Source: Verrucomicrobiota bacterium
GTDB taxonomy: Bacteria; Verrucomicrobiota; Verrucomicrobiia; Limisphaerales; Palsa-1400
NCBI GenBank assembly: GCA_049510745.1
Contig: JBEKYR010000012.1
Coordinates: forward strand, 74,208-138,207
DNA length: 64,000 nucleotides
Direction: 5' to 3'
The position numbers and the translations under genes were made by a program. Positions 1-15,841 of the stretch are shown here, one piece after another. The notes under the pieces were generated by a model, which was not told where the DNA came from, ran no database searches, and saw only the letters and a program-made list of their open reading frames with translations. Numbering within the stretch: the first letter of the stretch is position 1; each line of letters opens with the position of its first letter.

Positions 1-1289
1 GGCGCCTGGACGACCAGGCGGACGGGCAGATCGAACTTGCGGGCGAACTCCAGATCGCGGGTGTCGTGGGCGGGAACGGCCATGATGGCGCCGGTGCCGT
101 AAGAGGCCAAAACGTAGTCGGCGATCCAGATGGGGATTTTCTCATTATTGACAGGATTGACGGCAAAGGCGCCGGTGAAGACGCCGGTTTTTTGCCGGGC
201 CAACTCGGTGCGTTCGAGGTCGCTCTTTTTGGCCATCTCGGCTTTGTAAGCGGCAACGGCGGCGCGGTGCTCCGGCGTGGTGATGAGATCGACCAGCTTG
301 TGTTCGGGCGAGAGCACCATGTAGGTCGCGCCAAACAAGGTGTCCGGGCGGGTGGTGAAAACCAGGATGGTGCGGTCGGCCTGGGCGACGGCGGGAGGGG
401 GTTCAGCGAGGCGGAAATGAACCTGCGCGCCCTCGCTGCGGCCGATCCAGTTGCGCTGCATTTCCTTGAGCGATTCGCTCCAGTCGATTTGCTCCAGGCC
501 GCGCAGCAGGCGCTCGGCATAGGCGGTGATGCGGAGCATCCACTGGCGCATCGGTCTGCGCGTGACGGGGAAACCACCGACCTCGCTTTTGCCCTCGATG
601 ACCTCTTCGTTGGCCAGGACGGTGCCCAATTGCTCGCACCACCAGACGGGAGCTTCGCTGACGTAAGCCAGCCGCTTGCTGTCGCGGTACTGGCGGAGAG
701 CTTCCGGGGAAGCGGCGCATTCCGGGGGGCACGGGAGGGTGTCAATGGGTTCGGCTTTGCCGGCGGCGGGATTGAACCAGGAATTGTAGAGCTTGAGGAA
801 AATCCATTGGGTCCATTTGAAATAGCCGGGGTCGGTGGTGTCAATTTCGCGGCTCCAATCGTAGCTGAAACCGAGCGCCTTGATCTGGCGCTTGAACACG
901 GCGATGTTGGCCTCGGTCGTCACGCGGGGATGCTGGCCGGTGCGGATGGCGTACTGCTCGGCGGGCAGGCCGAAGGCGTCCCAGCCGATGGGGTGGAGGA
1001 CGTTGAAGCCGCGGGCGCGCTGGTAACGGGCCAGGATGTCGGTGGCGGTGTAGCCTTCCGGGTGGCCGACGTGCAGGCCGGCGCCGGAGGGGTAAGGGAA
1101 CATGTCAAGGATATAGAATTTGCGGGGCAGGCGTTCCGCCGCAACTTGGCCCGCCAGGCCGTGGCGCCGGGCGAAGGGATGCGCCTCGGGCAGCGTGTCG
1201 CCGGGATTCCAGGCGCGGAAGATTTCGCCCGCCTCCCAGAGGCGCTGCCACTTCGGCTCGATCAAATGAAACGGATATTGTCGCCGCAT
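1..1289 (-). CDS. leuS: Leucyl-tRNA synthetase (5' part; runs off the left edge of the window)
   Basis: Manual translation from ATG at 1289: [15 protein letters not shown]...[29 protein letters not shown] (HIGH-type motif), also [14 protein letters not shown] and [13 protein letters not shown]. Confidence 0.97.
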
Positions 1290-1405
1290 AAAGAGCGCGG
1301 GGATATTGCGGAAAGCGGGGGCGCGGGGCAAGGAGTTTGGGAGGCGCCAAAGCTGAGGCACGCCCTGGCTCGCCGGCTTTATCGGCATCCTCGCAGGGGT
1401 GATCT

Positions 1406-1666
1406 TCAAATGCCTTTCAGCAGGCGTTCGTATTCGTCATGATTGCCAATCCAGAACCAATACATGACTCCGTCTTGAATTCGACCCAAGGCGCGATAGC
1501 CGGGGGATATGCGGGCCGACCAATAATGGCCTTTCTTCTCAAACCGCAAAGAAGGATGGCGCGGATTCACCAGCCACAACCGATACGCTTTGCGGGCCTG
1601 CGACCGCGCCGAAGGGGGCAGGCCTCGATAACCGGCCCAGAAATCACTGGTCGTTGATGATTTCAT
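1406..1666 (-). CDS. RelE/ParE-superfamily toxin
   Basis: 86 aa, [43 protein letters not shown]; overlaps the upstream small gene. Confidence 0.8.
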
Positions 1667-13804: not shown

Positions 13805-13891
13805 ATTGATGAATTCACCATAGTGCATTCAATTTGGCGGTCAAAGCGAAAGAGGCAGCGGTAGTTCTAATTCGGGGAATTATATACATCG

Positions 13892-14302
13892 TTACCCTAA
13901 GCCTTGATTTTTTGCGCGTGTCTCGGCGGCTTTTAAGCCAGCGAGCCGCCACTTGCGGCGGAAAGAAGTTTGCCGTTTTTTGCGACTCAAGGCCGCCTTT
14001 ATACCGGCATCCTTCATGCGTTTTGACCACTTGACCACTTTTGGGCGATCGCGCATTTCGATGATTGTAGCTGTTGAGATCAAGTCGAGATCATGCATCT
14101 TGTGGCAATTAGGGCAGAGGATGACTAGGTTTGATGCTGCGCTATTGGCTCGATTTCCGTCAATGTGGGCCACTTCCAGAACGTCTTTAATTCCGAATCC
14201 GCAATGAGCGCACAAGGCGGGATAGGTTGCGAAGGCCAACTTGCGGTAATTGACGCGCTTGGCACTCACGTTACTTGGAGAATTTGTATATTCATAAGTC
14301 AT
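13892..14302 (-). CDS. HNH endonuclease (Zn-binding CxxC...CxxC type)
   Basis: CAHCG...LEVAHIDGNRANSAASNLVILCPNCHKMHD; basic C-terminal tail; stop codon lies inside the left IR. Confidence 0.88.
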   Translation of the reverse strand: MTYEYTNSPSNVSAKRVNYRKLAFATYPALCAHCGFGIKDVLEVAHIDGNRANSAASNLVILCPNCHKMHDLDLISTATIIEMRDRPKVVKWSKRMKDAGIKAALSRKKRQTSFRRKWRLAGLKAAETRAKNQGLG

Positions 14303-15153
14303 TGACTAGTATTATGTTGTGAACGTTTATCCTCTTGCTCTCTGAGTTTACTGCAATCTTCTTCCCATTGTTTCTCGGCTTGCCGCGACTTTTCGAACGC
14401 TTCGTCTATTTCTTTGTAAATATCGGCGATAACTCTCTCGTATGCTTGCGTTCTAGCCACTCCAAGTTGATTGTTTTCGGCGTTAAGTTTTTTGCAAATT
14501 CGTTCCGTGAAGTGATTCGGGAATGGCATGGTGCGTTTTCGACCACGCTCTACAACCGCAACGCTGACAGGGCCACCGCAAAAAGCGTCAATGCCCTTGA
14601 CGTGCTCAATTGTATCTATCGCCAAAGTCAGCCCTGTTTGCCATGTCATGCGGCTGGCGTCTATTTGACTGAGAAAGAACTTCGATATTCTAGAGGCAAT
14701 TCCAATCGCCGCAAATCGGGAACACGGCTGGGCTTGGGCCGTGATTGAGTCAATGGTATAAAGATAGGCTTTATACCTGTAAAAATGGGCGATCATCAAT
14801 TGAAAAAAATTCTCGTCTCGTTCAAATAAAGCCCGCTGCCGATCTTCTGGCATGTCTGGAAGATTATATAAGCCCAACACATTACGATGGAAATTTTTGA
14901 TTGATTTTTGTGCTAAATTTACCGCTGCCCATTCGCTATCTAGGGATTTGCCATTAGCCTCTCTTTTAATGTCATCAATAACCCGGAAGGCAGGCGCAAT
15001 TCCACCACAGAATGCAATCAAAGCCCCATTATCTTCAAAATCAATGCTGTATATTTTCAACGCATCGAGTTCTTTCATGCTGCCAGCGGTCGCTTGACTC
15101 TCTCCCGCCATGACAACCGTATCTTTACAGATGACACCCACAATCTGGCTCAT
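14299..15153 (-). CDS. Proteasome beta-subunit-like Ntn hydrolase (predicted Ser1 nucleophile) with a charged helical C-terminal extension
   Basis: GGAGG RBS before ATG 15153; SQIVGVICKDTVVMAGESQAT..LKI, LYTID, AAIG, MTWQTGLTLAIDTI, DAFCGGPVSVAVV are collinear with proteasome beta motifs. Confidence 0.75.
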   Translation of the reverse strand: MSQIVGVICKDTVVMAGESQATAGSMKELDALKIYSIDFEDNGALIAFCGGIAPAFRVIDDIKREANGKSLDSEWAAVNLAQKSIKNFHRNVLGLYNLPDMPEDRQRALFERDENFFQLMIAHFYRYKAYLYTIDSITAQAQPCSRFAAIGIASRISKFFLSQIDASRMTWQTGLTLAIDTIEHVKGIDAFCGGPVSVAVVERGRKRTMPFPNHFTERICKKLNAENNQLGVARTQAYERVIADIYKEIDEAFEKSRQAEKQWEEDCSKLREQEDKRSQHNTSQ

Positions 15154-15385
15154 TGGCACCCTCCATTTCTTAAAAAAGGGCGGCGGCTTTGGTTGCGGAA
15201 ACCTGTAAGGAGTGAATGGACGTTTTTAACGGAGTCATTCATACCGCCAATGGTAAACGCTGGAATCGCTGCGACAAGACTGAATATCTGATAGCGGGGC
15301 ATTATTCATCGCAACACACTAATCCGCAGCGACTTCCGCAGAGGTAACGTTGTATATAATTCCCCTAATTTGAATTGCGGTTAGC

Positions 15386-15841
15386 TCATGCTTCAGGCTG
15401 CCATTCCGTTTCCGCAAATATGGTGTAAAGAAGACTCTGCCCGCTGTCTATTGCCATCCCTTCCAGCCGGGAGGAGATAACCACATTGAGAAACCTGCTC
15501 AGAGCGAAAGGGGTGTGTCGCTCATCGACGGAGATGATTTGCGCCAACTTGTTCGCAGAAAGGCAAGCCAGAATGCGGTAATACTCCTCTAATGCAGGCG
15601 CATCCGCGAGCGCCTGTGGATGGGCGAACACTTCGCTGGGTACGAAGTCAAGGAGTTGCGCGGTCTGGCGAGCCAGATTGGAAATGCAAAGTTCATCCCA
15701 ATCCCAAACAAGGTTTCTCCACATTGCGCGCTGGGCTATCTCTCGCAGTTGCTCAAACCGGGATGCTTGGATGCAGTGCCAGAAACTGCGAGACCGCGCC
15801 AGGAATTGCTCCTGGAGCGCAGAGGTAATGTCTTGAGTCAT
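15386..15841 (-). CDS. Hypothetical protein, possibly the N-terminal part of an XcyI-like restriction endonuclease
   Basis: ATGA overlap with the trpA stop; WDWDELCIS..VFAHPQAL..YYRILACLS is reminiscent of XcyI-family N-termini (recalled, not searched). Confidence 0.45.
   Translation of the reverse strand: MTQDITSALQEQFLARSRSFWHCIQASRFEQLREIAQRAMWRNLVWDWDELCISNLARQTAQLLDFVPSEVFAHPQALADAPALEEYYRILACLSANKLAQIISVDERHTPFALSRFLNVVISSRLEGMAIDSGQSLLYTIFAETEWQPEA

Follow-up and report, generated by a model that had tools for sequence, protein, structure and literature searches.

The IS1595 family of insertion sequences (IS) includes MICs and tIS, which are defined in the accessible parts of PMC3129680 and PMC5704250 with reference to De Palmenaer 2004 and Siguier 2009; the first of these texts describes both MICs and passenger-carrying IS, and the second reports that IS1595 elements generate 8-bp duplications. 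Homologues of the proteasome were surveyed by Fuchs, Alva and Lupas (2021; PMC8665760), who named 22 groups, including the uncharacterised PHI and WPH, and reported no suggestive genomic context. The accessible portion of that article mentions neither transposases nor nucleases, and proteasomes and HNH proteins are likewise not mentioned in the accessible portion of PMC9208149. A literature search whose coverage lay mostly outside subscription journals found no work associating IS1595 with the proteasome, or a proteasome-like protein with an HNH nuclease.

Here we describe a cassette in which a proteasome-beta-like gene and a small HNH nuclease gene lie side by side between IS1595-type ends, within a 64,000-nucleotide stretch of bacterial DNA (the window). 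We assign a probability of about 0.72 to the reading that the cassette derives from an IS1595 element, lacks a transposase and carries two passengers that are mostly found apart, were likely joined by deletion and encode proteins that likely act independently.

Results

Ends, flanks and contents of the element

The element is a genuine transposase-less IS1595 derivative that spans positions 13875-15364 of the window (1490 bp) and is AT-rich, with a GC content of 46.5% against 60.3% for the genome. Its two 22-bp terminal inverted repeats, identical at 21 of 22 positions, are the sole matches in the 5.6-Mb assembly to a pattern search that allowed up to five mismatches, and the 8-bp sequences immediately outside them (13867-13874 and 15365-15372) agree at seven of eight positions. 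The segment, the repeats with their single mismatch and the direct repeat had all been described in an earlier note on this DNA, and all stand. The features are as follows.

13867..13874, no strand: left 8-bp copy of the target duplication, with one mismatch against the right copy
13875..13896, plus strand: terminal inverted repeat at the 3' end of the element (gene orientation), holding the HNH stop codon; from repeat comparison
13892..14302, minus strand: small HNH nuclease gene, with a CxxC-H-N-CxxC-H core and a basic C-terminal helix
14299..15153, minus strand: proteasome-beta-like gene of 284 codons, predicted Ntn-hydrolase fold; from profile match and fold model
15160..15164, minus strand: GGAGG, resembling a ribosome-binding site, six bases 5' of the ATG at 15153; from the sequence
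15343..15364, minus strand: terminal inverted repeat at the 5' end of the element; from repeat comparison
15365..15372, no strand: right 8-bp copy of the target duplication, the commonest target of the subfamily
15386..15841, minus strand: 5' half of an XcyI-like restriction endonuclease gene, outside the element and stopping just before the cassette

As the same note had proposed, the cassette holds only two, co-oriented genes, and the stop codon of the HNH gene (13892-13894) falls within the left repeat; both genes are on the minus strand, and their protease-like and HNH profile matches exceed the cut-offs. Its placement of the segment between manC and the trpA operon is broadly right, the immediate right neighbour being the XcyI-like 5' half gene rather than trpA, and a third repeat-like copy that it saw near 15296 is at chance level (score 9, reached by 158 of 300 shuffles). 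With 13 cognate IS1595 transposases as queries, the best match inside the element had an E value of 0.16, and no transposase remnant was detected at the gene junction. Four features of an IS1595-derived MIC are present: inverted repeats, an 8-bp duplication, kin that share the ends and carry a transposase, and passengers without one.

A 2541-base contig of run X3, the possible source of this DNA, covers the entire element with zero differences. The cassette is identical across the metagenome runs compared, and both reading frames are intact, which is compatible with selection on the pair. The runs containing the stretch are peat and wetland metagenomes; no RNA run was found among those listed as containing it, and a promoter scan yielded nothing above chance.

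An IS1595 subfamily with matching ends

An end pattern built from the two repeats of the window was scanned against genomes of the order and metagenomes, and it matched 17 of 401 of the former and at least 132 stretches of the latter. Elsewhere (L018, L035 and others), IS1595 transposases are bounded by almost the same repeats, again with 8-bp duplications, which bears out the IS1595 origin put forward in the earlier note; the transposases of L018 and L035 are assigned to the family by NF033547 matches above cut-off. The layout of the subfamily runs from one end through a 5' passenger, the transposase, a small ORF and an optional 3' passenger to the other end. In a hand tally of 19 paired elements, counted where the duplication agreed at seven or more of eight positions, the transposase was full-length or split in 13, partial in three and without a match in three; a full proteasome-like gene lay upstream of the transposase in five and an HNH gene occurred in one, while both genes, as in a complete protease-transposase-HNH element, were found in none. 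Internal deletions are common in the subfamily.

The 8-mer at the right flank of the window element is the commonest target, being exact at 14 of 118 distinct ends, with 20 within one mismatch. Moreover, the two flanks together resemble the end motif of an IS1-like element, which is a frequent insertion target of these elements; the subfamily may target the ends of another IS.

Several further observations concern the same elements. The favoured 8-mer usually lies inside a longer motif matching IS1-like element ends (L020, L117, L118, L138, L219, L257 and L277; 13860-13874 and 15365-15376 in the window). The reference IS1-like element, at 3247-6044 of L041, has an 8-bp duplication and an IS1 transposase match below cut-off, and ten near copies of the end motif (up to four mismatches) occur on contigs C2, C8, C44, C46 and C56 of the host genome, G000. 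On the 3' side of the transposase, a conserved basic, proline-rich ORF of about 50-60 residues usually stops some 40 bases before the repeat, and 23 distinct peptides of this kind were collected (L018, L020, L035, L111, L112, L142, L147 and others). In addition, in L158, L181 and L205 the same repeats bound elements about 1.2 kb long that contain a single ORF of 384-403 residues, with a putatively TnpB-like start.

The proteasome-beta-like gene is a recurring 5' passenger

The product of the upstream gene matches the Pfam Proteasome profile above cut-off (8e-13), and its sequence and model suggest that the active-site set is in place, with Ser1 (after Met removal), Glu17, a conserved Lys and the oxyanion Gly. 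Among 131 members of the cargo family, the residues of the Ntn fold are strongly maintained: residue 1 is Thr in 118 and Ser in nine, and both the acid and the Lys are present in all. In 20S beta subunits the Ntn fold carries an N-terminal Thr or Ser, Asp or Glu at position 17, Lys33 and Gly47, and the active-site surroundings comprise Ser129, Asp166 and Ser169. At the aligned positions the window protein has Ile, Asp and Cys, and thus lacks both serines; the Cys at position 169 is a family trait, found in 129 of the 131 members. The TIGR03634 score is 39.2 bits against a cut-off of 224, and no second proteasome-family gene that could supply an alpha-subunit partner was found in or beside the element. 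The predicted model (pLDDT 96.7) adopts a proteasome-beta fold, to which it adds a helix following H2 and a C-terminal helix of 70 residues, and in fold comparison it is matched about equally by proteasome subunits and by Anbu (Z 22-24).

The cargo family comprises 345 clusters at 50% identity (E up to 1e-30), and a homologue search with the window protease as single sequence returned only itself. A basic leader preceding residue 1 was considered as a propeptide and rejected: all 24 genes that were parsed correctly have ATG or GTG as the codon before residue 1 (one mis-parsed row and three without the motif were set aside), which identifies this codon as the start. Upstream of this start, most protease genes have an open frame rich in Lys, Arg and Pro (L015, L016, L018, L264, L267 and L270), which in L016 has its own ATG and ribosome-binding site; judging by these frames, a longer leader form of the protease may be made.

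Genome searches for the protease, run independently of the repeats, turned up 29 further distinct loci (16 + 16, with three found twice counted once), with flanks of only about 1.5 kb. An IS1595 transposase is present at 18 of these, often directly downstream and co-oriented; one of the 29 lies in an IS1-like element and one is accompanied by an HNH gene. Across all protease loci, a set biased to transposases in that about ten came from repeat searches, an IS1595 transposase lies within 1.5 kb of 27 of the 38 other genes. The gene recurs as a 5' passenger of the IS1595 subfamily.

The same proximity to transposases, together with the copy in an IS1-like element, would also fit a protease that serves as an accessory of IS1595 or IS1 transposition, for example by trimming or degrading the transposase, and that persists here as a functionless leftover. 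Compatible as it is with a history of deletion, this explanation is unlikely: a full copy of the gene is missing from 14 of the 19 paired elements, the gene is convergent with the transposase in L277 and L272, and it is intact without a transposase match in the window element, L016, L274 and L037.

The HNH gene is a recurring 3'-terminal passenger and otherwise a solo gene

The downstream gene matches the HNH profile (PF01844) with 23.3 bits against a cut-off of 21.4 and encodes 136 residues from the ATG at 14302 or 125 from the GTG at 14269. The ATGA overlap with the protease gene that the earlier note had emphasised is present in the sequence, but it requires an unconserved 11-residue N-terminal extension unlike the starts of most homologues: 69 of the 115 that carry an NYRK motif begin four to six residues before it, which fits the GTG. 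His46, Asn58 and His67 are invariant in 24 aligned rows, and His46 and Asn58 in 89, alongside two CxxC motifs. The model (pLDDT 90.6) predicts a zinc-binding core followed by a strongly basic tail (pI 12) with a helix of 37 residues. A fold search returned nothing at E < 0.001, the best matches being Cap5 and McrA, and comparison with defence-system models matched core stretches only, of several unrelated systems.

Homologues number 868 matches in many phyla, the best 120 of which are 65-84% identical; five Glaciecola-type matches were dropped as false. Their neighbours, of which 140 were scanned, are for the most part housekeeping genes, toxin-antitoxin genes and recombinases. The gene had no match in plasmids, was found at two loci in viruses, one of them weak, and was absent from the 400 other genomes of the phylum sample. 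Solo copies were also seen inside nuo operons beside toxin-antitoxin genes (L038, L040 and L032) and directly upstream of Y1 (IS200-like) transposase genes (L085 and L093).

Within the subfamily, the gene occupies the position that it has in the window. In L034 and L132, whose sequences end just upstream of the HNH gene, its stop codon lies inside the same repeat and in the same register; in L035, where the element is complete, it ends eight bases short of the repeat, and the gene upstream of it is the small post-transposase ORF, with an ATGA overlap there too. The C-terminal Leu-Gly that results from fusion to the repeat is found in 12 of 119 homologues.

The two genes are mostly found apart

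The pairing is not conserved. A protease gene lies within 1.5 kb of the HNH gene at one of 77 other distinct HNH loci (68 of the 78 loci, window included, have at least 1 kb of upstream sequence), and an HNH gene lies beside one of 38 other protease genes, the gene of L266, listed in two rows, being counted once. Both counts refer to a single locus, L037, where the protease gene is 59 bases upstream of the HNH gene in the same order, with neither repeats nor a transposase. The L037 protease belongs to the same subclade as that of the window, characterised by Gln3 and Glu18, and is 34% identical to it; HNH accompanies one of the four other subclade members with context, compared with none of 34 other protease genes. 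Three members of the subclade (L277, L288 and L200) lie in IS1595 elements without HNH. In quick trees of weak support, that of HNH being based on 124 columns with its careful search unfinished, neither the protease nor the HNH protein of L037 is the closest relative of its counterpart in the window. Among 163 genomes of the L037 family (G419), the protease occurs in 14, HNH in five and both in one (Fisher p 0.37), this one being the chosen centre of the comparison; in the order sample, none of four other HNH genomes is among ten other protease genomes. Equal contig sizes for protease P0275 and HNH P0021, and for P0272 and P0057, could be due to chance and were not counted, and a complex prediction for the two proteins, which scored 0.00 with controls not folded, was used neither way.

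These counts bear on the coupled protease-nuclease system that the earlier note had proposed, in which the protease would gate the HNH nuclease by cleavage or by binding its basic tail, with IS ends having captured a defence or addiction module. Its best evidence is L037, with the same gene order and a protease of the same subclade; the ATGA overlap, the basic tail of the nuclease as against the mildly acidic tail of the protease (pI 5.7), the resemblance of the HNH fold to Cap5 and McrA, albeit at E values all above 0.001, and the restriction-modification or toxin-antitoxin genes that several relatives house at the manC-trpA site point in the same direction. Nevertheless, the partner is absent at 76 of the 77 HNH loci and from 37 of the 38 protease genes, PADLOC models matched none of the 131 protease family members, the nuclease is well conserved in many phyla without the protease, the subclade rides IS1595 elements without HNH, and the gene overlap depends on the unconserved extension, so that coupling is quite improbable. 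The narrower idea that the IS-borne Gln3/Glu18 subclade is a protease able to gate small HNH nucleases, which would make the window cassette and L037 the first examples of a proteasome-fold anti-phage or addiction module, is very doubtful. Because the genes occur in relatives without these repeats, the homologues are rarely together and no empty site was found, most of what the earlier note had itself named as counting against its proposal has been observed.

The cassette is likely stranded in its host

Of 40 relatives, 26 have manC and trpA separated by no more than about 400 bases, and seven have other inserts there; inserts at this site in relatives include restriction-modification sets (G002, G014 and G016) and a toxin-antitoxin-type gene (G029). 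The XcyI-like half gene beside the cassette is 47% identical to residues 1-150 of the 310 of its counterparts in G016 and G014. More broadly, the junction (13829-15841 in the window; L022-L025, L027 and L028) is a repeated insertion site, with cargo that comprises XcyI-like and EcoO109I-like restriction-modification sets, a DUF3368 gene and an aspartyl protease gene.

The earlier note had described the cassette as mobilising its genes and had pointed to two signs of this, an empty site in relatives and an autonomous IS1595 with the same ends in the genome; neither was encountered. The target 8-mer was present at none of 18 loci in relatives, and no joint skipping the element was found in the contigs of eight runs, from which rare variants drop out. 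The two IS1595 transposases of the host are 32-40% identical to the cognate group, whose members are mostly 55-78% identical to the L018 transposase (one at 41%), and their ends differ. The search of the host assembly, in 85 contigs, found no cognate transposase; since the assembly is 94% complete, a helper transposase may be missing from it. Given the lack of a cognate transposase in the assembly and of an empty site in relatives or reads, the cassette is likely stranded in this host.

G000 holds three more paralogues of the cargo family, one of them directly upstream of an IS1595 transposase. Another PF00227 gene (G000:C5:127622-128188, E 1.8e-25) has no match to the cargo-family profile and may be Anbu.

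Probable union of the two passengers by deletion

The ancestor of the cassette would have been an IS1595 element with the protease gene at its 5' side, the transposase and small ORF in the middle and the HNH gene at its 3' side, from which an internal deletion would have removed the transposase and small ORF and brought the two passengers side by side. This origin is the most likely because both genes are recurring passengers and internal deletions are common. A relevant case is found at 754-1620 (minus strand) of L200, where an in-frame fusion, adjoining the same repeat as the window ends, joins the N-terminal 24 residues of a window-subclade protease to the C-terminal two thirds of an IS1595 transposase, starting at about residue 95; it follows that this protease subclade rode this IS and that internal deletions do join its parts.

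Alternatively, an adjacent solo pair such as that of L037 could have been caught as a block between two IS ends, with never a transposase between the genes and no coupling implied. Such a pair without repeats does exist in L037, the junction in the window is seamless and free of transposase remnants, and transposase-less elements with unrelated cargo are known from L115, L149 and L201; each gene alone, however, holds its own IS end elsewhere, in the same position and orientation as in the window, and the window and L037 proteins are not sisters in the quick trees, which makes block capture very unlikely. Union by deletion, followed by separate action of the two proteins, is the likely course, because each gene mostly occurs without the other elsewhere.

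Discussion

The protease would likely be a stand-alone N-terminal-nucleophile peptidase relying on Ser1, Glu17 and the conserved Lys, and, by analogy with Anbu and from the predicted model, it would likely self-associate through its long C-terminal helix; that it acts in stress or against phages would be a guess based on its travelling with mobile elements. The HNH protein is probably a self-sufficient zinc-binding nuclease whose modelled basic tail would bind DNA; since nearly everywhere it is conserved the protease is absent, the neighbour is likely required neither as activator nor as antitoxin. Movement of the cassette itself would depend on a matching transposase acting in trans.

That the pair is most likely an accident of deletion warns against taking genes that overlap in operon fashion on a mobile element for a system. 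The main value of the locus lies in the cargo family, a large bacterial proteasome-beta-like group riding IS1595 elements. This cargo status, which we did not find in print in a search mostly outside subscription journals, offers a testable lead on the horizontal spread of proteasome-like proteins in bacteria, and the small HNH protein, a candidate stand-alone nuclease, lends itself to simple tests.

Compared with known systems, the element resembles IS1595 MICs and tIS in its terminal inverted repeats, its 8-bp duplication, its passengers and the lack of its own transposase. It differs in its cargo, a proteasome-like gene and an HNH gene instead of resistance genes, in that no cognate transposase was found in the host assembly, and in the preference for one 8-mer target within an IS1-like end motif.

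The HNH protein shares with the nucleases of defence systems (Zorya ZorE, Septu PtuB, CBASS Cap5 and McrA) a zinc-binding beta-beta-alpha core with invariant His, Asn and His. In contrast to them, it is a stand-alone protein of 125 residues, with a basic 37-residue tail helix and no sensor domain, of which a core of 40-60 residues alone matches, and the partner genes are all absent.

The protease shares the Ntn fold with archaeal-type 20S beta subunits (PF00227, TIGR03634; 1j2q, 1pma and 6z46; Foldseek E 3e-12), its model superposing on 6z46_H with a Z-score of 23.4 and an rmsd of 2.0 over 176 residues, and has the N-terminal Ser/Thr, acid 17, Lys and Gly in common with them. It departs from them in its identity of about 20%, in the lack of an adjoining alpha-subunit gene, in the replacement of Ser129 and Ser169 by Ile and Cys, and in the extra helix after H2 and the 70-residue C-terminal helix predicted for it. 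A long C-terminal helix suited to a coiled coil is also a feature of Anbu, to which the model is similar (5loy_A; Z 22.5, rmsd 2.5 over 216 residues) despite an identity of 9-14%. The helical insertion modelled after H2 agrees with the description of PHI in the accessible part of PMC8665760, and Anbu, PHI and WPH are all like the window protein in having no propeptide; the cargo family may belong to the PHI or WPH group of Fuchs 2021. Unlike the groups as presented in the accessible part of that survey, the family of the window protein has a genomic context, namely that of IS cargo.
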